A stretch of 64,000 bases of DNA, from assembly GCF_006345805.1 (NCBI RefSeq), contig NC_043000.1, positions 30,070,001 through 30,134,000 of the forward strand, given 5' to 3'. This DNA is from Octopus sinensis. Lineage: Eukaryota. Positions 3,510-60,690 of this stretch are shown in pieces; positions within the stretch are counted from its first letter, which is position 1; each line of letters begins with the position of its first letter. The notes beneath the pieces were generated by a model. That model saw nothing but the letters and a program-made list of their open reading frames with translations, searched no databases and was not told the DNA's origin. A program made the position numbers and the translations under genes.

Positions 3510-3680
3510 ATTTAAGAGATGAGGAATTATGTACATTATTTAAATTATTTACATTTGATATTTGTCCTTATTTTGTTTATTGTTAACACAACGTTTCGGC
3601 TGATAAAACTCTCAAGCCTTCATCAGGTGTCTTGGGGAAATTTCGAACCTGGGTTCTCATTCCTAAGGTATTTTTTTATG

Positions 3681-3746: not shown

Positions 3747-4605
3747 CCATTGCACAGCTTCTAATACTGGAGATGTACTACAGTGTCAGCCTTTCACTAC
3801 CAGTGAACTAAGGTAACACCTCTTATTTTTCGAGCATCTTCCAGAGTATTCGAGCGGTTCCACGCAGTGCTGTTTTCTTCAAATGCTCCACCCTTATTGC
3901 AGGCCCTATTTGTTCCACGTACTTTTCAAGATTTTTACTCACTGTTTCCAGGGCTCCGACAATTATTGGTGCTACTGCTACCTTTTTCATCGACCACAAC
4001 TGCTTAACCTCCCACGCTAACCTGTCATATCTCTCAACTTTATTTTCTTCCTTATCGCATACCTTGTTGTCAGCTGGGCACGCTACATCTATGATCCACC
4101 ATAGTTTGTTTCCTTTCTCAATTAAGACTATATCCGGTTTCCTATTCTCTATCTCATGTTCGCACTGAATCATAAAATTCCATAGGACCTCTGCATTTCT
4201 ATGTTCGGCAATGCTTTCAGGTTTGTGGCCGTACCAAATTTTTGCTCTATCAAGTCCATACTTGTTGCAGAGCCTCGCTGTATTGACGTGGTATCTCTTA
4301 TATTCCTTCTGGGCTAGTGGCGTACATTGGCTGGTAATATGCAATACGGCTTCACAGTTTTGTCCACAGATTCTGCGCTTATTACTTTCTGCTGTGTTGT
4401 CTATTCTGTATTTTATGTAGCTTGTTGTTAGTGCTTGCTCTTGGGCAGTATAGATTAGAGTCTCCGTTTGCGCTTTTAAATTACTTATAGTCATCCACAG
4501 CCATCTTTTTTCTCTGTTTGTCTTATCTTCAACATCTCTATGAAATTGATCATGCATTCTTTTCTTCACCCACCTATTTTCAGTTTCATTCGTTTTCTTA
4601 GTTTT
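3747..4605 (-). pseudogene. R4/Dong-clade non-LTR retrotransposon 3' part (zinc knuckle + restriction-like endonuclease) with 3' UTR
   Basis: ORF 3823-4569 has AQEQAL, decayed CCHC (RICG..LHITSQC), RKPDIVLI..IIDVACP, K..RY and PIIVGAL motifs; 3' end abuts (TAA)n. Confidence 0.85.
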
Positions 4606-4609
4606 ATAG

Positions 4610-5150
4610 GTATAGGTAGAGAGGTAAAATCAAATGTATGGACGGGCTAACGATGCCGTGGGGGAAGGTTATGAAGCAGATAGAAGAGACGGGCTATAAG
4701 TACTTGGGGATTGTGGAAATGGATAAATTGATGGAGGAAGAAATGACAGAAAAATTTAAGATGGAGTACTTGTGCAGTCTGAGACTGATCCACAATTCGA
4801 AATTAAATGAACAGAATAAGATCGAAGCTATCAACACCTGGGTGGTTTCACTCCTTAGATATGGAGCAGGGGTAATCTCATGGACAGTAGACGAACTAAA
4901 CAGCTTAGACAAAAAGACAAGGAAGTTGCCAACTACATATGGATCACTCCACCCAAAAAGTGCTACAGACATACTGTATTTACCAAGAAAAAGAGGAGGA
5001 AGAGGACTTATTGTATATGAACACAGCATTAGAGCAGAAGAAAACAGCATAGCATGTTATGTAAAAAAAAGCCACAGAACCGCTATTATTAGAGGTAGGA
5101 AGGTCAGCTTTGTGTAGGATGAAAGATAGCAAAGATAAAGCACTATACAA
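4610..5150 (+). pseudogene. R4/Dong RT C-terminal (thumb) fragment, inverted relative to the endonuclease part
   Basis: ORF 4638-5117 has YKYLGI, NKIEAINTW, LRYGAG and LYLPRKRGGRGL. Confidence 0.85.
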
Positions 5151-5164
5151 GAAATTATTATTAT

Positions 5165-5720
5165 TGAGTGAGAGAGCAGTACATGACATCAAAGTGACAC
5201 TGGGGTAAAATATACGAAGCCCAGTATACCCATCATGACTACCCGTCTGATAAGGGTACACCAGGCACATGCATCACAACCATATGTGCGCGACATGCTG
5301 ATCTTATATCAAGATAAACAGCACATGACCTTGCAGGTGGAGCCCAGTTAGAATTTTTTTCAGGTCGAGTAACCCATCCCGCTCAAAAGGTCCCTGAATA
5401 AAGGTTGTTTAAGGATGATGAACGAAACACCCATGTTTCCAGAGGTGAATTATTGAAACCCCAAAGAATCCCTCTCAACGCATGGCTATGATGCTCCCCC
5501 ACTACTTCTGCTTGTGATCATGATGCACATATCGTCAGCCACTAAGGGACATGCTCAACTGGTTAAGGCTAAACAACTGACAAGCAAATCTGTGGTATTG
5601 AGCAGAATATTTGCTGTAGCCCATCTTTTATTCTAAGACAAAACAATGTACATGATAACACTTCCAATCAGTTAAGATCAGAAACCATGAGAGTAAATGT
5701 CTGGTACTGCATCAGGGCAT
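5165..5720 (-). mobile_element. About 555-bp non-coding interspersed element in (TAA)n, copy 1
   Basis: Highly similar to 40909-41494 and 41565-42119; all bounded by (TTA)n; strand inferred from the Dong-like (TAA)n polarity. Confidence 0.8.
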
Positions 5721-5921: not shown

Positions 5922-6080
5922 AACATCGAAAATTACCTTAGGTATGAGAACCCAGGTTCGAAATTTCCCCAAGACACCCGATAAATGCTGGAGGGTATAT
6001 CAGCCGAAATGTTGGGTTAACAAAAAAAAAAAAAAAAAATTGATGAGGACAAATATCCGGCAAATGTAAATGATGTTTAT
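5922..6080 (+). mobile_element. Penelope pLTR copy with decayed hammerhead (CCGATAA...GAAATGTT)
   Basis: Inverted homolog of 3510-3683. Confidence 0.75.
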
Positions 6081-10877: not shown

Positions 10878-10881
<4 letters not shown>

Positions 10882-11304
10882 ATACTAGGCATCTCAATAT
10901 GGCTAACCACTAAGGGTGGGTGTTACTGTAGCTTCTAGACCCATGAGAACATCGTCTCCAGCTGGCTTTGAGCACACTTTCTGTGCCCTTATGGTATTTT
11001 CAAAGGGAGGTCATTCCTCCCTCGTCAACCTAAGCGATACGCATGGACGGAAATTTCTAGGTATTGACCTGTCGTCGGCGTACGACAATCACCGGTTTTC
11101 GATGAAGGGATGTCCCAATGCAAATACTTTTATCGTTTTTCCAGTAACTTAGGTTGACGAGGGAGGGATGACCTCCCTTTGCAAATACCATAAGGGCACA
11201 GAAAGTGTGCCTAAAGCCAGCTGGAGACGATGTTCTCCTGGGGCTACAAGCTACAGTAACACCCACCCTTAGTGGTTAGCCATATTGAGATGGCTAGTAT
11301 ACCT
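10878..11304 (-). mobile_element. Foldback element: about 157-bp inverted arms around a decayed hammerhead motif
   Basis: 10878-11034 is the reverse complement of 11148-11304; minus strand 11038-11082 reads tacg-CCGACGA-c-AGGT..ACCT-a-GAAA...TG-cgta. Confidence 0.75.
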
Positions 11305-17111: not shown

Positions 17112-17258
<147 letters not shown>

Positions 17259-18660
17259 GGACTCTTTCTCCTAGATACCTTCGGTAAGACATTCCCTAAC
17301 GTACATTTCACCATCTACAAAGATGATGCCCTCGCCTTAACAGCTAATACAAATGGACCAGCACAAGATCGTTTTAGGAAGGATATTATCCAGTTAATGA
17401 AACACTTCGGACTTAGTATAACTATAGACACTAACCTGACGGTTGTCAATTTCTTAGACGTTTCCTTAGATCTTAATAATAATATTATAAGCCTTATAGG
17501 AAGCCCAATGATAGACTAAGTTATATTAATGTAGGTTCATGCCATCCCCCTATAGTATTCAAAAATTTAGTTAAAAATATTAGTAAGAGGATTTCTAGCC
17601 TCTCATCTAATGAGGACATCTTCAATAGCGTTGCCCCAGTTTATAATAAAGCTTTAAAAGATAGTGGTTTTAGCGAAAAAAAAAATATACACCTATCACC
17701 AGCCCACAATAAGGAAAAGGAATAATAGAAATAGGAAGGTCATCTGGTTTACGCCCCCTATTCACCCGAGGTGGCCTTCAATATAGGTAAATATTTCCTA
17801 GCACTGATAGATAGACTTTTCCAGTTAACCATGCTTATAGGAAACTCTTCAATAGACACAATTTAAAATTAGTTTTAGTTCAACTACCAATTTTAAAAAC
17901 ATAATCAATCATAACATACAAAAAACACAAGAAGAAAACAGCTGTTCATGCAGGAATAAAGAATTGTGCCCGCTAAATGGAGCTTGCATGTCCAAGACCA
18001 TCATATATGAAGCTACCGTAAACTCTATAACCACTAAAGACACCGTTTCGACGAAGAAATACGTGGGCCTGACAGAGGGTAATTTCAAGGCCAGGTTCAA
18101 TAACCACACTTTGAGCTTTAGGCACAGGAACAAAAGAAAAGCGACACAATTATCCAATCATATTTGGTCTTTAAGAGATAAAGGTGTCGATTATAACATA
18201 CAATGGATTATAACATACACTAACGGCAGCGGAAGGTGCGGTTTATGCGACATGGAGAGATGGCTTATCTGGAAAAGCAGCTTAGACCCTACCACATGTC
18301 TAAATACAAGGACAGAGCTTTTCGGATCATGCCCACATGTGACTAAATTTCTGTTACGTTTTTGGTCCCCTAAAGAAAACGGATAGAACATGCTTTCTGT
18401 GTTATGCCCCAAAAAGTTTTATATATTTTTATATATTTTATATATTTTTATGTATTTTATATAATTTTTATGACGAAAAATGCGAGCGAGTATAAGTACG
18501 CAGGCAAAGCAGAGTTATAACAGAGTAATTTCCCTTCATTTTTAACGGTATTTTTTCATAACGTTTTCAAATAGCCAGATACCCGAAGAGATGGTGTTGT
18601 GGATTTCCACTTCGGCATCTGAAACTCAGAGTTTTATCTTGACTACCGAGTAATGTAACA
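17259..18660 (+). mobile_element. 5'-truncated Penelope-like element (Naiad-type): RT C-terminus + GIY-YIG endonuclease + 3' hammerhead motif
   Basis: Reads IYKDDAL, VNFLDVSLDL, KPND..YINV.S.HPP (frameshifted), then CSC..CPLNGAC..IIYEA..YVGLTEGNFKARFNNH; decayed HHR CCGAAGA..GAAA at 18577-18639; (TA)n on both sides. Confidence 0.85.
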
Positions 18661-18677
18661 TATTGTATATATATATA

Positions 18678-21836: not shown

Positions 21837-21936
21837 NNNNNNNNNNNNNNNNNNNNNNNNNNNNNNNNNNNNNNNNNNNNNNNNNNNNNNNNNNNNNNNN
21901 NNNNNNNNNNNNNNNNNNNNNNNNNNNNNNNNNNNN
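21837..21936. other. Assembly gap (100 N)
   Basis: Run of N, truncating a family B SINE head at 21788-21836. Confidence 1.
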
Positions 21937-22773: not shown

Positions 22774-22968
22774 GTGACGCGTGTGTATCGTTGGCGATTT
22801 TTTCCTCCGTCTTCCCTTCCTTGGACCTTTCCTTTTCTATGTTTCTGACGAAGAGCTCCGCTCGAAACGTTAAACCTCCTTTCTTTCCTTTCCTGAGGTC
22901 CACTAACACTATACTTGTTCCATGTCCTCATGTTGTGTTGTTTTCTCTTTGTGTTTTCATGTTTGAAT

Positions 22969-23489: not shown

Positions 23490-23764
23490 TTTTTTATACA
23501 CATGCTGATATATGACCTACGTTGGACTCCTCATTCGCATAATCACCGAACCTGGAGCTTAACTATAGTCTGTCCATAGCACTTACTCAGCATTGCCTGA
23601 CACTTTTGGGTCTTTCTGACACCATTACCTCTCATAACCTCTCTCTCTCCCCTCTCTTTCTTTCTTTCTCCCTCTTTCTCTCACTCTCTCTCTCTCTCTC
23701 TCTCTTTATATATATATATATGTGTATCATATGAAATAAAAAACAGAACACAAAGGATATCGCG

Positions 23765-23852
23765 GTACACATGTTTCGAGCTTTATAAAACAACTTATTC
23801 TTACATCAATGTATAATCGACATAACAGATAGTTTAAAGCCCTCTTCACCTC
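23765..23852 (-). ncRNA. Decayed hammerhead motif
   Basis: Minus strand GTGAAGA-GGGCTTTA...TAAAGCTC-GAAA-CATG-TG; core substitutions at positions 3 and 17. Confidence 0.5.
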
Positions 23853-24138
23853 TGCCACTATCTGGCATATACAGGTGCTTATACTTATCAAGTATTCAAC
23901 CTGAATTTACAGTACCTATATATATATATATATATATATATTCGACAGACTTCTTTCTGTTTCCCCTAACTAAAAACACAAAGCTTTGGTAAGATACACA
24001 AAGTACACATGCCCAAGTGCGTATGCAGTGGGATAGATCCCAGCATCTCATGGTTGGGAAACAAACTTCTTACCACATGACCATGCTTGTATCTATGTGT
24101 AACCTATGTAACACACACACACACACACACACACACAT

Positions 24139-26420
24139 AAATTGTAAATAAGATCTTCTAAATGTAGAAGGCAAACTGGAAACAAATTGAGAAAGAGATC
24201 CTCAAACAAAACTGGCCTGAATGTCTATCCTCGCCAGACATCGACATGAAACTTCAACAATTCATGTCTGTAATACAAGTCATATGCTACAAATGTGTCC
24301 CAGAGAGAAAGGCCACTGTACACAAGAGCAAAATCCCCAGAGAGAGGAAAATTCTAATGAGACGGCGTACAAAAGTTTCAAATCGCCTAAACAAACAAAT
24401 TGAAAGCAGTGAAAAGTCCCGCCTGAAAATAAAACTGTTGGAAATTGAAAAATGTCTGCAACTCTCCCATGAAAAGAAAGAGCAGACAAAGAAGCCTGGG
24501 CTATAGACAACATAAAATCTAACCCCAGAGCTTTCTACAGGTATGCCAAAGAAACAGCTACGGTGCACTGTAGGATAGGGCCACTCCTTGAAAAGGATGG
24601 CACACTCACAGGAAATCCAGTGAGGGTAAGGGAAATACTAAATGAGCAATTCAAGAGTATTTTCACGCCACCCCTAGGGCATTTTCAAGTCAGCAATCCA
24701 ACTGACTTCTTTACCATTGCAGATATAAAATCGGAGGCAGCGATGATTGATTACATCAATATAAAGGAAGACGATGTAATAAAGGCTATTAATGAAATGA
24801 AAACAAACTCAGCTACTGGCCCAGATGGATTCCCAGCAATCCTTCCAAATGTATGTAAGAGAGTCCTAGCAAGCCAACTGCAGTTCCTCTTTCAGAGCTT
24901 CCTTGCAACTGGTAAACTTCCAAGAAAACTGAAGGAACGTAAAATATGCCCTATTCATAAAAGAGGTAGCAGAGCGGAGGCCAATAACTACAGACCTATC
25001 TCTCTGACTTCACACATCAGCAAGGTCATGGAACTAATAGTCAGAAGGAAACTAATCACCTTCCTTGAAGAAAATGACTTGCTGCCTGACACCCAACATG
25101 GTTTCCGACCAGGAAGAAGCTGCTTAACTCAGCTCCTATAACACTATGACTGGGTGCTGAAACGACTGCTCAACCACTCAAATGTGGAAGTGATATATCT
25201 CGACTTTGCAAAGGCCTTTGATAAAGTCGATCATGGAATGCTATGTAACAAACTGCGTGATCTTGGCATAGTTGGAAAATTGGGAGAATGGCTTCATGAC
25301 TTTCTGAAGGATAGTAGTCAGGTGGTAGTAGCAAACAGTGAGCGGTGTTCCGCAGGGCACTGTTTTGGGACCACTACTGTTCATAATGGCCCTCTCAGAC
25401 ATGCCCTCAGCCACGCAGAGAGCCACGATCACAAGTTATGCAGATGATACAAAGGTTTCACAGGCAATACAGAACCCTGAATACACTAAGCACCTGCAAT
25501 GTGAGCTGGACAAAATATACAAGTGGGCTGAAAAGAATAGCATGCAGTTCAATGCTGAAAAGTTTCAAGCTCTATACTATCAGCACGCAAAACTAAATGC
25601 AATACCCAATAAATACACTGGACCTGGAGGGACTGCAATCCCAGAGGCACAATCAGTGCGAGACCTGGGTATTTACATGAGTGATGATGCAACCTTTCAT
25701 GTGCATGTTGCTAAATTGGCAATGAAATGTAGGCGGCTGACCGGATGGATTCTTAGAACCTTCAGAACAAGAGACCAGGAAACCATGATGGTCCTCTGGA
25801 GGACACTTGTCCTAAGCCACTTTGACTATTGCTCTCAGCTATGGTCACCATCCAGTGTCAAGTTAATCACAGAACTTGAGGCGATCCAACGAAGCTACAT
25901 GAAGAAGATAGCCTCTGTGCAGCATACAAGCTATTGGGAAAGGCTCAAGAGATTGAGACTCTATTCCTTAGAGCGTAGGCGAGAAAGATATGCCATAATA
26001 TACATCTGGAAGATCCTAGAAGGACTTGTCCCAAACTTTAGCATCGAGAGTTACACAAATGCCAGAACTGGGCGCCACTGCATAGTGCCAAGGGCTCTAA
26101 ATTTGCCATCAAGATGTAGGACAAGATACTGTGATAGCCTGGGCTTCCGAGGCCCACAGCTCTTCAATATCCTCCCGAAGAACCTAAGAGACCTGCATAG
26201 GGTGGATGCAGATGTCTTTAAAATTAAACTGGATGAACCAACTCCCAGATGAACCAACTTCACGGCAGGAGGTGCAGATGAGGGCAGCTGCATCGAACTC
26301 TCTCATGCACCAAATGGCAATTGCTAAAAAGCATTCGTGAAGTAAAATCATGTAGCAACACCAAATGGCGGTGCCCCAGCATGGCCACAGCTTGTGAGCT
26401 GAAACTAGATAAATAAAAAA
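24139..26420 (+). mobile_element. CR1-group LINE, 5'-truncated, frameshifted ORF2 reverse transcriptase
   Basis: GPDGFP, NYRPISLTS, QHGFRPGRSC, YLDFAKAFDKVDH, SGVPQGTVLGPLLF, YADDTK, DYCSQLWSP and YWERLKRLRLYSLERRRER spread over three ORFs. Confidence 0.92.
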
Positions 26421-27732: not shown

Positions 27733-28384
27733 CTTAGATATATCTTATCTTTTATATATTTCAGTCTCTGCGCCGCGGCCATCCTGAGGCACTGCTTGAA
27801 TAGTTTTCCGTCGAGCCTGTTTCATGCTTGATTTAAAAACCATTACATTATCTACCCCGGTGTTTGGCTGAACCGCTGGATTACATTGAAGTATGCAATA
27901 CCTGTTGTGAAACGTTGGAAGTATACACACATGAGATGCATGTATTTATCCATATAAATATATATGGCATCGAGTCGTTTTAGTTAAGCGTTCGGTATCT
28001 AGTTCTGGAAATTATGTTTTCGAAACGACAGACTATGCAGACAATCTTGCAGATATTTGCGTGTTCATATACGTAAATATTAACAAATGAAATCAATGGT
28101 ACATGGGTAATCGTTTTTTATTTTGTATATTTTCATTTGTATTGCTTATTTTTACATTTTAGTTTTTTGGCTGAGATTTTTCTTGAGAACTCATTCTTCG
28201 TGGTAATGGCGATTTGGCGTCTATGTTTAGCATATAGGCTGTCCACTTTAGTGGTCATTCCTCTAAATTTTGTATGTAACACAATTTTTAATCTTCGGAT
28301 TTTTTAAGTATGCTAAGCGACTGGTTTTAATTGATTAATATCAATTTCTACCCTTATTTATAATATATATATATATATATATAT

Positions 28385-29972
28385 ATTATATTATATTAGA
28401 GATAAAACCACCATTAGGCAAATCAAACAGTGAAAAACATAAGCAATACATAATATTAATTAAAAATATAAAAGTTAAAAATTAAAAAATTATTTAAATA
28501 ATTAAACTTATAAATTTTAAATATATATATACAAATATATATATATAATATATATATATATATTATATATATATATAATATATAATATATATATATGTAT
28601 GTATATTTTTTTTATTTATATATTATTTTATTTATTAATTAATTAATTTTTTTTTTTTTTATTTTTAATATATAAATATCAAAAGTATAAAGTTTAATAA
28701 AAGATACAGAGTAAAACACTACGATCGTTTCATGGCTGTACCAATTCGAATAACAATAATTTTAATTCAATTAATAACTCGAATTATGGTTACAGTCAAT
28801 CTTCAGGTTAATTGAAATATTTTTAAAATAATCAGAAATATTTAAACAATATTTTAAAGATATAAATAATATAATAATTTTACTTATAATAAACTCTATT
28901 AACAAACTAGAAACTTAAAACTTAACAATTATGATTATATCAAAATCGATTTTATGTTAAATATTAATTTTAATTTATAAGGTAAGAAACCCACCAATAA
29001 TCTAATATCGTTAATAGTCTATATTTAATTACATAAAGATTTTTTTTTCAATGACTATTATATATAAATTATTAATGAAAATATATAAATCTATATAAAT
29101 ATTATAATTAAGATCTAAAATAATCTCTATAAATAAATATATATGCACATATAATAAAGACCTAATAAATTAACTTTTCATATTTAAAGATGAAATAGCT
29201 AATTTCAAAAATACAAACAAACAAACTTAAACGAACTTTCGGAAATCTAATTTAAAATACTTATAGAAATAATCAATTCGTAGTTATATAGTATCGAATA
29301 AATACTATAAATACTATAAATATATTTATCAATGGGAATAACTAGCCAATATCAATTTAAAAAGACAATAACTAAGTTATGCTATTAAGTTAGACATGGC
29401 CTGTACCAATCTTTGGTCGAAACATATCTAAGTTTAACAAATTTTAATTATAAGAAATTTAAAACTACAATTAATACTATTAATACATGTATATACAAAA
29501 ACCTAACTTTAGACAACTCTTATAATTGCTATCAAACAACAAATCTATTGCTAAGTAATATCTTACGAATAAACTTAAATTTAATATCTAATAATATAGA
29601 AAATTACGATAATTAAATCATTACATAAACAACGATATTTACATAAGAAAAATATTATTACACCAAACACTTATAAAATATTAAAATTTACAATTTAAAG
29701 ATCTTAAATATAAATAAATACTTATCTTAGCGAGGTTTTGTAAATATTTCTGATTATTTTAAAATATTTCAATTAACCTGAAGATTGACAGTAACCATAA
29801 CTCGAATTATTAATTGAATTTAAATTATTGTTATTCGAATTGGTACAGCCATGAAACGATCGTAGTGTTTTACTCTGTATCTTTTATTAAATTTTACTAC
29901 TTTTGATATTTATATATTAAAAAAAAAATTAATTAATAAATAAAATAATATATAAATATATTATATATATAT

Positions 29973-30030
<58 letters not shown>

Positions 30031-30205
30031 TTGTATATAAATATTTGTATATATATATATTTAAAATTTATAAGTTTAAATTATTTAAATAATTTTTTAA
30101 TTTTTAACTTTTATATTTTTAAATTAATTTTATGTATTGGCTTATGTTTTTCACTGTTTGATTTGCCTAATGGTGGTTTTATCTCTAATTTAATATAATA
30201 TAATA
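28385..30205. mobile_element. 1.8-kb AT-rich foldback element with about 460-bp inverted arms, each holding a hammerhead motif
   Basis: 28385-28844 vs 29741-30205; HHRs at 28718-28808 (-) and 29776-29866 (+): CTGAAGA-long stem II-GAAA-CGATCG-TA. Confidence 0.8.
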
Positions 30206-30296
30206 TAATATATTTATAATATAAAATTGGATTTAATCATAAATCAAATTTTTCCTGTAAGTTTGGATTTATTCCCTAATTATTATTATTATTAAT

Positions 30297-30330
<34 letters not shown>

Positions 30331-30448
30331 ATATATATATAATATATATATATATATTATATATATATATATATATATATTATATTCTATATATATATAT
30401 AATATATATATATATATACATATCTATATATAATATATATACATAAAA

Positions 30449-30656
30449 AGTTAATCCAATATGAAAACACAAAAAGAAAACACAACAACGCGAGGACGTG
30501 GAACAAATATAGTATTATTGGACGCTCAAGAAGGAAGGGAAGAAGGAGGGTTTAACGTTTCGAACGGAGCTCTTCGTCAGAAACATAGGAAAAGGAAAGA
30601 TCCAGAGAAGGGAAGACGGAGGGAAAAAAATCGCCAACGGTACACACGCGGTCACA
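30449..30656 (-). mobile_element. Second copy of the 200-bp minimal-hammerhead element (HHR 30550-30584)
   Basis: Minus strand gttt-CTGACGA-A-GAGC-tcc-GTTC-GAAA-CGTT-aaac. Confidence 0.8.
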
Positions 30657-34173: not shown

Positions 34174-35084
34174 CAGCTTTAGCCAAAAGTATAAGGCCAC
34201 CCCAATGCTTTGGGGTTCTGCTATCTCAATGTTAATGAAACTCGTGCAAAATGATATTAGCTTCATGTTGGATACGTTTTTTTATATATTTTGGGCAACA
34301 AACCAGTTACATGAAGTTTATATGTTGATTGAAAACATGTACTATCTTACCTCATAGTTACTTTCAGACCATATGACTTTTGACTATTGCTCACTGGTCC
34401 AATTTGAATGGTTTTTGGCCCACAGAAGACATTTTTCCATATTCGCTTAAAAAACCCATCGCTTTACAGCTTTTCAGACCGTACTCTACAAGCCTTCTTC
34501 TAATAGTTCTGGTTGATATTTGTGAAGTATTTGCCTGGTTGAAGTCCGCACAGAGCTCCAGCGACGATGTTTTTCTTCTGTTTCTGAGCGATGACGGATG
34601 ATGTATGTATCATCACGAGATGATGAGACCTTTTTTCTGCTTGTTCTTTGTATTGTCTTCACACTCATTGTCTCTCCGAGAACATGTTCTCACATCGAGA
34701 ACATTTCGTCTTCAGAGAAATTTGCCTTTGCGTCATTCCATCTTTATGATGAGCTACGATTTGACCTCCCTCACACTTACTCAACTCCCTTGTTTTAGGC
34801 ATTTTAATATTTATTAAGTGTATCAACAATGTATTTTAGCGTAAAACTCTGAAATAATCAAGGAAACATAAGTTAATTTTGGGCGTTGGTCTTACTCATA
34901 ATCGGTTGCATATGTCCAGTACAGTATAAAAGCGGTAATTGATGCTAAAAGATGGTCAGCCAGATATTAAAACTAATGTATATTGTGGAATATACCATAA
35001 TCTACCATCTGCACGAGTTTCATTAACATTGAGATAGCAGAACCCCAAAACATTGGGGTGGGCTAATACTTTTAGCCAAGGTTG
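34174..35084. mobile_element. Deleted and rearranged Tc1-like transposon
   Basis: About 79-bp TIRs with TA flanks; MPKTRELS... and SKVIWSE remnants on the minus strand; C-terminal KAVIDAK..RY* on the plus strand. Confidence 0.85.
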
Positions 35085-36174: not shown

Positions 36175-36830
36175 AGGAGACAATAAAACCAAGACCGTGT
36201 GGAATTTTCTGGACATTTATAAAGTGAAAGTAAGTCTTACAACTGTTTCTGGGATGTTAGGGATATCTCTTTATCAGAGAGGTTAAATAGAGGGAAATAT
36301 TAGAGTTCAGTATAAGTAGTTATTTTCTAAAAGGATGGATATAGGGAGTATAAAGGGAAATAAGAAAATAAAAATGAAAGTAAAAATATATGTAGGATAG
36401 TATAGTTGCAGTTGCATTATCTAAGGAAAGTGCTGTGTAGAATGGGTAGAAATGCTTCTTGTTCATGGTATGTAGAATCCGATAGGAGTTCATATTTTGT
36501 TATTACAAGTGGATAGTATTTAGACATAAATTCCATGTGCTGTTCATTGAAAGGGATCCTGTGGTGTGAATGAAATTTTGAGAATGTATTGGTGGGGGTG
36601 AGTAGATAAAGAGAAGAGGATAGATATGTATGTTAGGAGGAGAATGGTATTAGTCAAAAGGAATAGGGGAGGAAAGAAGAAAGAAAGAAAAAGGAGGATA
36701 AATGAGCAAAGGAGTGATAGATGGTAATGAAGATATAGTGAGGGGGATGGGAGAAGAGAACTATCAGGATAAAAGGAACCGGGGAGGGATAGAAGGAAGA
36801 GATAAGAATGTAAGGAAGGAATACACACTG
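36175..36830 (-). mobile_element. Homolog of 11940-12810 with hammerhead motif (36235-36280)
   Basis: Minus strand tct-CTGATAA-agagatatccctaacatccca-GAAA-cagttg-TA-aga. Confidence 0.65.
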
Positions 36831-36840
36831 TAACAACTCT

Positions 36841-37510
36841 GAATATACGAGCGCCCAACGTATACACAGCTCCAATATCGAACCATATACTTTAGACCAT
36901 AACGGAAACCCAACCAATCCTACTAACACTAAGCAGAATGCTACTACCCTAACTTTCACCACAATTACAGATAGGATAAATAACCACGATAGAAATAGCA
37001 AAGATATTTGTAATAATAATGTTAATAACATAGAGCAATCTACCTCCATCTCTGACCTCTCCTTAGACAGTATTACTTCCGCCGTTCCTGAAAATAATCC
37101 CCACAATGCACTACCATGTAATTGCCGCCCCGGTACCATTTGCCCTCTACAAACCCGTTGTAGATGGTCTCACGTAAATTACAAATGCACCGTTTTCAAC
37201 ACGCTGCACAATTCTACAACCATAGTTATTGGGTCAACTATAAATTTTAAACAGCGATACGCTACGCATCTCGGTTCTTTTAGATATGAGAAGCACAGTA
37301 ATTCCACAGCACTCGCCAGTCACATACACCATCTCAGAAATAGGGAAACTCCATCTAACTTGTCATAGTGCATAATAGATTCAGGACTTCTATAGCAGGA
37401 TTAATGCTTAGCCTATAAGTTATGCCTAAAAGAAGCATTTCACGTACTAAAACACAAATCTTCAATACTACTAAAGTATAATGAGGCCCTGGGTACGTGC
37501 AAACACCTGT
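36841..37510 (+). pseudogene. Naiad-type PLE GIY-YIG endonuclease remnant (absent from the ORF track)
   Basis: Manual translation: PCNCRPGTICPLQTRC..VNYKCTV..VIGSTINFKQRYATHLGSFRYEKHSNSTALASHI...KLCLKEAF...ALGTCKH; three in-frame stops in the 3' half. Confidence 0.8.
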
Positions 37511-37930
37511 TTTCATAGCTTCAAATTTTACCACAAATCTAAATGCAGCTTAAACCAGCACACAGTACATATACCGACCCCCCCCTTAGGTAACACCCAA
37601 CAACCTTATTTGATTTTCCAATGTCTTATTTCTTTATTTTTTCAATTCTAATTTTAATCTTTTAATTGTTTAATAATACGTATTGAAACATGTATGTGTA
37701 TATATATATCTATATGTGTGTGCCCATTGGGTGCCCTGTTATTTTAATATATATTTATATTCGATTTTTATTTGACTGATTGGAGTGCTTATGCATTATA
37801 CCTTTCAAAATATCTCTCCTTTCGCTTCGATGTTGCCCAAGCACTTCCAGTTGCAGTACTATTTTTAGTTTTGCTCTTAGGTTTAACGAAATTGCCTTTC
37901 GGTTTAACGAAGTTATAAAATTATCCTCTC

Positions 37931-40889: not shown

Positions 40890-40908
40890 TATTATTATTA
40901 TTATTATT

Positions 40909-41494
40909 GAGTGAGAGAGCAGTGCATGCCATCAAAGTGACACTGAGGTAAAATATACGAAGTCCAGTATACCCATCATGACTACCCGTCTGATAAGGGT
41001 ACACCAGACACATGCATCAGAACCATATGGCGCGCAACATGGTGATCTCATATCAAGAGAAACAGCACATGACCTTGCAGGTGGGGCCCAGTTAGAATTT
41101 TCTTCTGGTCGAGTAGCTCATCCCGCTCAAAAGGTCCCTGAATAAGGGTTGTTTAAGGATGTTGAACGAACCACCCATGTTTCCAAAGGTGAATTATCCA
41201 AACCTCTAAGAATCCCCCTCAACATATGGCTATGATGCTCCCCACTACCTCTGCTCGTGATCAAAGATGCACATATCGTCAGCCATTATGGGACATGCTC
41301 AACTGGTTAATGTCGAACAACTGACAAGCAAAACTGTGATATTGAGCAGAATATTTTGTAGCCCATCTTTTATACCAAGACAAAACAATGTACATGATAA
41401 CATTTCCAATCAGTTAATATTGAGCAGAATATTTGCTGTAGCCCATCTTTTATAACAAGAGAAAACAATTTACATGATAACACTTACAATCAGT
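40909..41494 (-). mobile_element. (TAA)n-resident 555-bp element, copy 2 (truncated, with about 76-bp internal tandem duplication)
   Basis: Homology to 5165-5720; 41340-41415 repeated at 41419-41494. Confidence 0.8.
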
Positions 41495-41506
41495 TATTTT
41501 TATTAC

Positions 41507-42548
<1,042 letters not shown>

Positions 42549-47260: not shown

Positions 47261-47704
47261 TATGCATATGAGAGGGATGACCACTATGTGAACAACCCTT
47301 ATGCTAGAAGTAGATCCGCTATGGTCTTACCACTAGAAATGTTCTCAAGAAAAATTTAGCAAACACCAAAATTTATGCGAGCAAGACAAATGAAAAATAA
47401 TCACAAGTGTAACAGGTAGAACTAGATACATGTCCGACCTCGTGCGGACGTCCTCGTGTATAGTTCTGCAAATTATATTTGTATTGATGGTAACACTGAA
47501 GATCTACGGACAAATTGCGTAAGTAAAATTACGTAATCTGTTAATAGTGAAACATGTATGTAATTAATCTATATTTTTGTTACTTTTCCTTTGTCTTGCT
47601 CGCTTACGTTTGGGTGTTTGCTAAATCTTTCTTGAGAATATTTCTTAGTGGTAAGACCATGGCGGATCTACTTCTAGCATAGTGGCCATCCCTCTCATAT
47701 GTAT
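47261..47704 (+). mobile_element. Foldback element: 130-145-bp inverted arms around a hammerhead (47491-47563)
   Basis: 47261-47405 vs 47577-47704; taaca-CTGAAGA-t-CTA..TAG-t-GAAA-CATG-TA-tgtaa. Confidence 0.8.
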
Positions 47705-54345: not shown

Positions 54346-54776
54346 GAGGGTACTACTATTCATAGATACCGCACGCTAGGAGGGACCCTTGCGGTCAAAA
54401 CTACTAAAATAAACAAATTGTACCGAATGCAAAACTTGAAAGCAAGTCATTTAAAAAAAGAATTTAGTTACATATCACCTGTGATTTCGCAATTAATGCA
54501 GAATATGCATTCTATGCTCATCAGTGCAACAAACTCAAGACATATAAGAAAAAGCATAACATTACAAACCCGACAGCCAACCGTAGAATTCGTCGTAGCA
54601 TGTACGAATGTTTATCTCTACATATCTATGAAAATGGCGGGCTTATTCGCAATGCATTTCGGGATAAATGACTAGCTTTGAAGTTTTGCATTCGGTACAC
54701 TTTGTTTATTTTAGTAGTTTTGACCGCAAGGGTCCCTCCTAGTGTGCGGTATCTATGAATAGTAGTACGCTCTATA
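54342..54776 (-). mobile_element. Foldback element: about 112-bp inverted arms around a canonical hammerhead
   Basis: 54342-54453 vs 54665-54776; TA-rich flanks. Confidence 0.85.
54467..54530 (-). ncRNA. Type I hammerhead ribozyme, intact-looking
   Basis: GTTGCA-CTGATGA-GCA tag AATGCA tattc TGCATT aat TGC-GAAA-TCAC ag GTGA-TA-TGTAAC; all core positions and three stems present. Confidence 0.9.
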
Positions 54777-58656: not shown

Positions 58657-60690
58657 TATTATTTACGTTCGACGTATATTTGTCCTCATCTTGTTTTTTA
58701 ACACAACATTTCGGCTAATATACACTCCAGCCTTCTACAGGTGCCTTGAGGAAATTTCGAACCTGGATTCTCATTTCTAAGGTATTTTTCGATGTTATAA
58801 TTATTGCTCAGGTCACTGCCTGGAATCGAGCTCGGAATGTTGTGGTAAGTAGCCTGTGCTCTTAACCACTACGCCATATGTTCGTGAGTGTTATGTTATG
58901 GAGTGGATTTTAGGGCTTATAAATATAATGTTTTCCAATCCTTCCTTAATACGGGTTCCTATATGCTATTCATATCTGAACTCGGTCTGTTTAGGAGGTT
59001 GTTGTGTCCTAGCATATGCGCTGCTTCTGTTAGTTTTCGTATTTTCCAGTGGTGTTCTCTGTCTATTATTTTAACTTCATCCCACAGGGGGAAGTGGTCT
59101 CCATTTTTCCATACATGATCAGCTATACCCGATGTCACAGCGTTGCGATGTTCGTCTACCCTTATTTTGAGGGGGCGGTATGTTTCGCCTTTGTATAACC
59201 TACCACAGCTGCATGGGATGGAGTACACGCAGTCTTTGGTCATATCCTCTTCTATTGGTGGTTTTACTCTTGAATACTGTCCTGATATCCTATGGGCCGC
59301 ATATCTTTTGTATCTTTTCGGAGAGGCCTTTCACATAGTGTAGACAGACTGTGGACAGTTTTTTGACCTCAACCTCTCTCTTCTTCATAATTAGAGTGGA
59401 TAGTATACTTTGGGGGGGTAGTTGTTGCTTAACAGATCGTTATTGAGCTTGATCATTTCTTCGTGGTGTGTATCACGATTGCTACTTATATTCTTTACTC
59501 GATGTTTTAGGCACTGAGCAATCCCTCTCTTTACACAGTATAGATGGTGGGAATTGAAGCTGAGGTATCGTCCAGTGAAGGTCGGCTTGCAGTATATGGA
59601 TGTCCTGAATCCATACTTGGTCCGTATTATTAATACGTCCAGGAATGCCAACTGATTGGCTTTTTCCTTTTTTCCATTGTGAACTGCATAGATGGCTTTA
59701 TTGAGTTCACATGATCTAACAGCACTTGGACATCTTCCTGGTGGAGCCAGAGTATAAAGGTGACATCAACATATCGCAGCCCCATTATGGAACTGTTTAC
59801 ATATTTGGGACACTTCTGCTGTCACACACACACACACACACATATCCTAGATCATATTTCAACGTTGCTCACACAGTTGTGTGTGTGTGTGAGACAGCAG
59901 CCCCACCCCGGGTATGTGAGCAGTACTGCAATATGGTGTGCAATGCCTCTGTGTTTGTATGACATCAAATTTGTTAATTCTACCGTAATCCCTTAGGAGA
60001 GGCTGGTATGCATAAAACCATCCTGTCTGGACTTTGTGCCCCAGAGGGCAACTTTCTAGGTGCAATACCAAAGGGGCTCTTTACCCTTCACCTTTATTAA
60101 AGCTGGAGAGTGTGTTATTTAGTTTGTTGTTTGTAAAGGACTGCACAAAGTAAGGGAAGCAGTTGTAGTAACCAAAATCACAAGATGCTATTCACTGTTG
60201 GTTCTAGTGGTGTTGATCCTAAAGCCAAATTCTCAAAGTATTCCATGTATATATTGGCTATTATCGGTGATAATGGCGAACTCATAGCTAAACCTTCTCC
60301 CTGTCGATATATATCAATATCCATACTGAAGTAGGTAGTTTCTACACAGAAGGTCAACATTTCCATCAAGTTTCTTATCGGAATACTAGTGCGTTCTTTT
60401 TGATGGGTGTATGTCACTAGTTTTTCTTGAATCACCGAAAGGGCTTCAGAAGTTGGGACTTCCATGAACAGACTTATCACATCTAGACTCAGCATCTGGT
60501 TGGATTCAATGGGTATATCCTTGATCATCAATTTTGTGATATGGGTGGAATCCTTCACTACAATGTTGACTTTCCTGCTAATAGACTGATTACATCCAGA
60601 AGGAAGCGGCTCAGTGGATGACATGCTGAACCTCTACAGCTCACTATAGGTCTTAATGGAATATCCGTCAAATGTAAATAATGTAAATAT
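58657..60690 (-). mobile_element. Penelope/Poseidon-type retroelement, 5'-truncated: RT + GIY-YIG + pLTR, interrupted by an insertion at about 59760-60190
   Basis: IPLRPIVS, SLDVISLFMEVP, GLAMSSPLSPIIANIYME, FLDVLI, KPTFTGRYLSFNSHH, CVYSIPCSCGRLYKGET.RPLKIRVDEH; pLTR with decayed HHR at 58700-58745. Confidence 0.9.
58808..58878 (-). promoter_or_regulatory. tRNA-like Pol III unit (A and B boxes) between GIY-YIG and pLTR
   Basis: Minus strand TGGCGTAGTGGTTAAGAGC...GAGCTCGATTCCAGG. Confidence 0.6.

Follow-up and report, generated by a model that had tools for sequence, protein, structure and literature searches.

An AT-rich fold-back with two outward-facing hammerhead motifs in Octopus sinensis is probably a head-to-head insertion made by a Penelope-like element protein

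Introduction

Should an inverted repeat that carries a hammerhead motif in each arm be read as a mobile element in its own right, or as the product of an insertion made by another element? The question is raised by an AT-rich fold-back of ~1.9 kb, in which the motifs of both arms read outward, located in a 64-kb stretch of Octopus sinensis DNA (hereafter, the window). The window is microsatellite-rich animal nuclear DNA of ~35% GC that contains several retroelement remnants. In the initial annotation, the fold-back was regarded as a non-autonomous element of the Penelope-like (PLE) type, either strand of which carries one hammerhead and whose read-through transcript would form long dsRNA. Here, we propose, with a probability of roughly 0.7, that a PLE protein (probably of the Hydra clade) acting in trans generated it as one head-to-head insertion in a (TA)n run, and that it is probably inert by now.

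Results

Two inverted arms enclose a unique spacer

Self-blastn of the window aligned the left arm (28357-28844, minus strand) with the right arm (30225-29741) at 91.1% identity over 496 columns, and CTGAAGA cores at 28806(-) and 29778(+) place one outward-facing hammerhead motif in each arm, as originally annotated. Outside microsatellites, the arms differ by eight substitutions and ten gap events in 362 aligned columns (152 + 210), a divergence of ~2% (2.2%). Read from the sequence, the substitutions at 28778 and 28783 resemble a single micro-inversion of a quasi-palindrome. The right arm (29741-30225, plus strand) appears to be the 3' region of a main copy, with the hammerhead, a T-rich tail, an A-run, internal (TA)n and an outer unique block, and the unique 896-bp spacer (28845-29740, plus strand; 18% GC, A-rich, C>G), for which family searches were negative, would be the upstream part of that copy. 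The left arm, judged from its 91% self-match and the alignments, would be an inverted, more strongly 5'-truncated, pLTR-like copy of the same 3' region. Its inner end lies 37 nt upstream of the hammerhead core, and a hairpin with a perfect 7-bp stem (28835-28853) sits at the inversion junction. When stem lengths were sampled, 7 bp was reached at one of 104 positions, probably the junction itself.

In both arms, the motif is followed by a T-rich tail, A[AT]TAAA hexamers and (TA)n, and the arms run on for ~190 nt past the internal (TA)n. The claim that (TA)n lies on both flanks and inside the arms is borne out by four runs (28359-28390, 28535-28596, 29956-30059 and 30291-30440). The left target run (28359-28390) is the 3' end of an older hammerhead-bearing remnant, and the right run (30291-30440) is common to the 3' end of an unrelated PLE remnant with a minimal hammerhead at 30580(-). 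Between the right arm and (TA)n there is a unique AT-rich extension of ~65 nt (30226-30290, plus strand), a candidate PLE 'tail'. Nothing at the left flank matches it, and the ends of the fold-back are therefore asymmetric. The ends run into (TA)n; no target-site duplication (TSD) could be read there, no discrete terminal motif was seen, and self-blastn revealed no second copy within the 64-kb window. A single copy in the window does not show the fold-back to be a mobile non-autonomous family, and the inverted arms are probably not element termini.

We also considered whether the inversion might come from faulty assembly, or from a repair event that duplicated DNA in inverted orientation without any retrotransposition. 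The assembly is scaffolded, as shown by a 100-N gap at 21837-21936, many of the arm differences are 1-nt indels in homopolymers, and PLE structures are known to trouble assemblies (PMC8557442). However, the arms also differ by the eight substitutions and in their (TA)n interruptions, a unique spacer and two unrelated flanks are not expected from a fold-back chimera, both 3' ends of the fold-back fall at (TA)n, and the window holds a second element of the same layout. Such an origin therefore seems very improbable.

The fold-back is also the lowest-GC unmasked stretch of the window, at 0.17-0.20 compared with a mean of 0.367 ± 0.049 (505 windows) and a lowest value of 0.257 elsewhere. Its GC content of 11-18% is below that of the window's Hydra 3' UTRs (27-32%), and the CpG observed/expected ratio reaches 1.6 in the spacer versus 0.86 in the window. 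Neither the extreme AT content nor this CpG ratio is explained by the origin that we propose. The same AT-richness in arms and spacer, unlike the flanks, would suit a dedicated non-autonomous mobile unit of 1.9 kb with fixed long arms. PLE proteins might move it, or it might be a DNA transposon of the fold-back/MITE-like kind with a captured pLTR that bears the hammerhead. The long arms, ~98% alike outside microsatellites, and the presence of TA-flanked inverted-repeat elements in the window (54347-54771 and 34179-35079) point the same way. We nevertheless hold a mobile unit to be unlikely, given the asymmetric ends with their right extension, the lack of a visible terminal motif or TSD, and the element at 47262-47704 (see below), which shares the layout but is truncated elsewhere with respect to its hammerhead.

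Both arms carry a hammerhead-like motif with a long stem II

The type I hammerhead-like motif occupies 29776-29866 on the plus strand in the right arm (core 29778-29784; stem II 29785-29852, weakened; stem III 29856-29863) and 28718-28808 on the minus strand in the left arm (core 28806-28800; 68-nt stem II; GAA; stem III 28728-28721). The motifs thus lie on opposite strands, and each strand carries one sense hammerhead, in agreement with the initial annotation. The order in each arm is CTGAAGA, exactly 68 nt, GAA, the palindromic ACGATCGT, A and a 2-bp stem I. A CUGANGA core, GAAA and a cleavage triplet of the NUH type (GUA) are present in both copies, and cleavage after GUA is predicted at 29864 (right) and 28720 (left). 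The intact core, 68-nt stem II, palindromic stem III and very short stem I described earlier could all be recovered in both copies, with stem II weakened in the right one. At 2 bp in both copies, helix I is shorter than the 4-6 bp expected of a type I hammerhead. Stem II is opened by U.U instead of G10.1-C11.1, and helix II is interrupted and ~27 bp long. The left hairpin (-16.8 kcal/mol, z -3.52) was better than every one of 200 shuffles (0/200 as good); for the right one (-10.0 kcal/mol, z -1.42), 18/200 shuffles were as good, which is not significant alone.

Rfam gave no hammerhead match at E ≤ 10 over 28640-29930. At the same threshold, the fold-back yielded one chance miRNA match and neither a hammerhead nor rRNA, and the whole window at E ≤ 1 returned only microsatellite-driven noise among the 150 of 186 matches listed. 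A descriptor that we composed after the motif had been seen matched 7 of 20,000 composition-matched Markov sequences of 1451 nt. On the real window it found five sites, the left copy being among them and the right copy not. With this post hoc descriptor and the Markov control, the motif occurs far above chance.

The spacer has no detectable coding capacity

The spacer had been annotated as ~900 bp of non-coding DNA, and its 896 bp proved to be devoid of detectable coding capacity in Pfam, Hydra/Poseidon profile and database searches. Six reading frames were considered under tables 1, 4, 5, 6, 9 and 14. Pfam matched none of the six, read through stops, and comparison with profiles of ~150 Poseidon-like and 119 Hydra-like proteins (tblastn, HMMs) gave no match. 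A profile alignment allowing for frameshifts and AT drift scored 14-17, which is the level of shuffled sequences (25 per setting), with positive controls at 91 and 302. At the nucleotide level, the fold-back showed no similarity to the window's Hydra 3' UTRs or to the other long-stem motifs, and there was no direct repeat between the spacer halves or between spacer and arm. Since it has no protein match, we regard the spacer as non-coding, captured or decayed.

One stretch of 97 codons with a single stop (29323-29613, plus strand; 75-aa stop-free part at 29389-29613) is borderline against Markov controls (p ~0.03-0.05) and possibly represents a decayed coding relic. Its homolog search was empty: a protein database search restricted to longer proteins retained 0 of 94 candidates. 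The ESM Atlas linked the 75-aa part at most (0.91) to hypothetical viral proteins without a name; recognition did not reach the threshold, and we discarded this result as noise.

The spacer could also be the heavily decayed 3' end of an autonomous PLE ORF (e.g., the RT thumb of a Naiad-type element, with its N-terminal endonuclease) and the fold-back an old truncated autonomous copy. Besides the 97-codon stretch, the strand skew of the spacer is ORF-like (A>T and C>G on the plus strand, as in the window's PLE ORFs), the best tblastn row corresponds to an RT-thumb region in the frame of the 97-codon stretch (E 0.025 per query), and Naiads target (TA)n, some of them with split hammerhead cores (PMC8557442). 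Yet an E of 0.025 is expected among ~150 queries, the profile tests were negative, and the overall stop density of the spacer is at chance (p 0.62). Moreover, arms just 2% apart fit poorly with an ORF decayed beyond recognition, and the 3' ends of Octopus and Euprymna Naiads, inspected by eye, have GAAAC before CTGATGA, unlike the motif order of the fold-back. We find this reading quite improbable. A Naiad origin was rejected as a candidate: the likeness of the 97-codon stretch to an RT thumb was unsupported, and the Octopus and Euprymna 3' ends differ.

Composition alone (18% GC, strong strand skew, CpG ratio of 1.6 versus 0.86) would also accommodate a spacer of foreign AT-rich DNA, whether mitochondrial, parasite or viral, with the motif incidental. 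Against this, no rRNA, tRNA or protein family match was obtained: the standard tRNA scan found 0 genes and relaxed mitochondrial scans gave overlapping noise, and phage DNA produced only chance matches of 30-64 bp and plasmids none. As the motif is also far above chance, we consider a foreign spacer with an incidental motif extremely improbable. Foreign DNA captured inside a PLE is compatible with a head-to-head insertion too.

Long-stem motifs and PLE remnants recur in the window

A long-stem descriptor, with an energy cut-off chosen after the motifs were seen and one core mismatch allowed, identified five sites at four independent loci (28806/29778, 47496, 18583 and 23849); Markov controls (n=200) averaged 0.67 and never exceeded 3. 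With an exact core, two loci were found versus 0.06 expected. The three motifs outside the fold-back have a stem II of 31-65 nt, and one of them has the same inverted layout. A MAFFT alignment of the five motifs showed the core alone in common. A long stem II thus seems to be recurrent in this genome; our literature search, whose coverage of subscription papers is thin, retrieved no description of it in cephalopods.

In the element of the same layout, the segment 47262-47433 repeats the 3' end of 47552-47704 in inverted orientation, with 133 identities over 152 aligned columns. The hammerhead at 47496 is Hydra-type, with a 46-nt stem II (z -3.77, 1/300 shuffles), a palindromic ACATGT and a 3-bp stem I. 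The inverted copy in 47262-47704 reaches no further than stem III, where a GC-rich hairpin of 5 bp adjoins it, and for this reason the element has one motif. In the fold-back, the same kind of product was cut short 37 nt upstream of the core instead. In addition, the left flank of the fold-back (27953-28277, plus strand) belongs, in decayed form, to the 47496 family (z 18, 0/100 shuffles), and the fold-back was therefore inserted into an older element's (TA)n tail.

The motif at 18583, with a 31-nt stem II and one core change, comes directly after a Hydra-like ORF, in the region of a broken Hydra-clade PLE ORF at 17115-18665 (plus strand; profile match 17259-18386). Over a 75-residue stretch of this ORF, 45 positions match Hydra-1_Obim of Octopus bimaculoides by eye. 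The remaining motif, at 23849, belongs to a short (TA)n-flanked piece (23760-23915, minus strand) and has a 65-nt stem II with one core change; it is weak, with 8/300 shuffles as good. A scan of genome contigs provided one locus from 60 stretches, cut inside the ORF and without a hammerhead.

Further repeats were recorded in the window. Two copies (77%) of a PLE 3' end, at 30458-30639(-) and 22789-22963(+), have minimal hammerheads at 30580 and 22845. A Poseidon-type pLTR occurs in three copies, 3568-3675(-), 5923-6074(+) and 58658-58795(-), and the minimal hammerhead at 3626 is intact; copies one and two, 81% identical and ~2.3 kb apart, point outward, and the third comes after a Poseidon-like ORF (58959-60633, minus strand; profile match). 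A second Hydra-like endonuclease remnant lies at 36814-37520(+) (profile match 37117-37506), with no recognisable hammerhead downstream. There are broken non-LTR retrotransposon ORFs at 24168-26252(+) and 3823-5117, putatively CR1-like and RTE-like by their motifs, and an 87-bp inverted pair (5020-5106/7477-7563; 97.7% alike, 2.4 kb apart) within a LINE-like remnant. MITE-like fold-backs with inverted ends were found at 10878-11304 (nearly one 430-bp palindrome), 54347-54771 and 34179-35079, and a repeat of 480-530 bp in three copies (87-92%) at 5165-5693, 40908-41387 and 41564-42092, two of them in tandem.

The motifs are predicted to be silent at this locus

In folding predictions, the constrained active fold lies above the best fold by 9.5 (left) and 14.8 kcal/mol (right), and in a read-through transcript only three nucleotides of the right motif escape pairing with the left arm. 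The duplex formed by the palindromic stem III is worth -10 kcal/mol, and this palindrome indicates cleavage as a dimer; because they are on opposite strands, the two motifs cannot dimerise in cis. Self-cleavage at the locus appears doubtful, as stem I is 2 bp, the active fold is disfavoured and the motif would be hidden inside dsRNA on read-through. The locus is probably catalytically silent, with dsRNA as its sole likely output, if it is transcribed at all. The long read-through dsRNA foreseen by the initial annotation is thus predicted by the fold, but it would inactivate the hammerhead rather than make use of it.

An internal segment (29395-29421, plus strand) and the 3' strand of stem II (29834-29853) are complementary, to a degree equalled by 1/200 shuffles in one of 13 tests. 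In predicted plus-strand RNA from 29350, it pairs with that strand at a probability of ~1.0 at most positions. The segment may be template-switch scrap or a switch. Its interpretation as a second hammerhead in a tandem or retrozyme structure was dropped for want of repeat support.

A proposed head-to-head insertion made in trans

We propose that the main copy is non-coding and extends on the plus strand from 28845 to ~30290, the inverted shorter copy of the same 3' end running from 28844 to 28357. An RNA with the AT-rich spacer and the pLTR-like 3' region would have been bound by an RT-GIY-YIG protein encoded elsewhere. [quoted passage not shown] The inverted truncated copy could then stem from another round of synthesis, or a self-primed one, with the join at the junction hairpin, which would have happened to extend 37 nt past the hammerhead and so duplicated the motif. 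The arms would since have drifted ~2% apart, over ~3 My if the octopus rate applies (2.2% divergence scaled by JC 0.09 = 25 My, PMC13282606, gene conversion being ignored). The normal action of the motif would be cleavage after GUA as a dimer via the palindromic stem III, probably helped by protein, whereas read-through RNA at this locus would form ~460 bp of dsRNA burying the sense motif.

This head-to-head insertion is supported by the outward motifs with their T-rich tails, a spacer that runs without a break into the right arm, the junction hairpin, the one-sided extension and the (TA)n on either side. Further support comes from the published PLE layouts and the Hydra-clade core pattern (see Discussion), the second element at 47262-47704 and the Hydra-like ORF followed by the long-stem hammerhead at 18583. 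Against it stands the fact that the profile, Pfam and database searches provide no sequence link between the fold-back and any PLE protein. Also against it count the missing nucleotide similarity to the window's Hydra 3' UTRs and other long-stem motifs, the single copy in 64 kb, the unreadable TSD, a tail exceeding the published 30-40 bp, the low GC content and the extension of the arms past an internal (TA)n. Of the initial annotation as a PLE-type element, we retain the PLE-type origin and the lack of coding capacity, but not the arms as special fold-back termini; they are most likely the known product of head-to-head insertion. [quoted passage not shown]

Discussion

The fold-back likely works like a head-to-head PLE insertion. 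Such a product has already been published (PMC8557442 Fig. 2 and Files S1/S2, PMC3846280, PMC4209133), so the layout is not new, and since it is known PLE biology the locus alone teaches little. What is new is the length of stem II. If stem II has grown to 30-70 nt in other hammerheads, these would be missed by Rfam and standard descriptors. Four long-stem loci in 64 kb, with 0.67 expected under a descriptor tuned post hoc, suggest that the upper limit which descriptors set on stem II makes hammerheads undercounted in such genomes. Head-to-head insertions are, moreover, candidate long-dsRNA substrates in a host lineage known for heavy A-to-I editing.

More tentatively, this genome may carry several non-coding PLE-mobilised families with Hydra-type hammerheads and a stem II of 30-70 nt. 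The long stem together with 29395-29410 would be a folding switch, holding cleavage back until binding of the PLE protein. Head-to-head insertions would be numerous and, uncounted so far, would supply long dsRNA to RNA editing and to small-RNA pathways. We think this wider picture rather unlikely to hold as a whole. Active long-stem forms, if real, would be a natural test of the role of PLE hammerheads, whose cleavage was protein-assisted and dispensable for insertion in vitro (PMC11167929).

Among known systems, the minimal PLE hammerheads described by Cervera and de la Pena (2014, PMC4209133) resemble the fold-back motifs in a short helix I and a palindromic helix III implying dimers. They differ in their conserved G10.1-C11.1 and 6-8-bp helix II, compared with U.U and ~27 interrupted base pairs here. 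The same work reports a 2-bp helix I in D. virilis Penelope, weak activity of PLE hammerheads in vitro, and hammerhead pairs on opposite strands 100-700 bp apart, whereas the cores of the fold-back are separated by 972 bp. The non-LTR retrozymes (bioRxiv 10.64898/2026.07.22.740005) are likewise non-coding, have a type I hammerhead and are proposed to be PLE-derived, but consist of head-to-tail tandem repeats with one hammerhead per unit, while the fold-back is head-to-head and without a tandem repeat.

Stem II regions of ~50 nt that escape standard descriptors are listed in PMC8557442 (Files S1/S2) for PLE-X1_sMoe, PLE-X1_sTam and Naiad 'HHR_half_core', and split cores of some Naiads lie 35-50 nt apart. 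The two spike-moss PLE rows give long stems a precedent outside animals. PLE-X1 are spike-moss EN-minus elements and Naiads have an N-terminal EN, and their core context differs from that of the fold-back. When the supplements of PMC8557442 and PMC13282606 were searched with short motifs, no copy of the fold-back family came up, although line-wrapped FASTA can hide matches.

In Adineta vaga, Penelope insertions (Arkhipova et al, 2013, PMC3846280) show inverted pLTR flanks, junction palindromes and a one-sided tail, as in the fold-back. Unique captured spacers of 0.9-1.5 kb adjoin the 3' pLTR, and pLTRs can enclose captured non-coding DNA that is moved in trans. Those insertions have readable TSDs of 8-10 bp and an identified parent, neither of which applies to the fold-back, which also lacks their second pLTR in direct orientation. 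A more general description of PLEs (PMC8557442) includes an insertion bias to (TA)n, an inverted 5'-truncated copy beside the 5' end that forms inverted repeats, and often a 30-40-bp tail at one end, compared with ~65 nt in the fold-back.

The nearest likeness is found in the Hydra clade, above all in Penelope-13_HM, Hydra-1_cRog and Hydra-1_Obim; for this clade, File S2 of PMC8557442 lists the hammerheads of 25 families. The fold-back differs in lacking a detectable RT or GIY-YIG ORF, in the 68 nt between core halves (at most 26 nt in the listed families, by eye) and in its 2-bp stem I, compared with at least 3 bp in the listed rows; in Hydra-1_cRog, stem I likewise has 2 bp next to the core, followed by an internal loop and more pairs. 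Like the fold-back, Hydra-clade families combine a type I hammerhead, the pattern ctgaNgat...tgaa, a tg/ca opening, a 4-bp near-palindromic stem III and (TA)n insertion. Inspected by eye in that file, 14 of the 25 have the core split as ctgaNgat...tgaa with U.U in place of the G-C of most PLE hammerheads, 10 of the 25 also open stem II with tg/ca, and Hydra-1_cRog has the flanking aac/gtg in common with the fold-back motif. From this short motif pattern, compared by eye, the fold-back probably belongs with the Hydra clade. Finally, Penelope-13_HM (PMC8557442, Files S1/S2) has an inverted 5'-truncated copy and a hammerhead on each strand, as in the fold-back.
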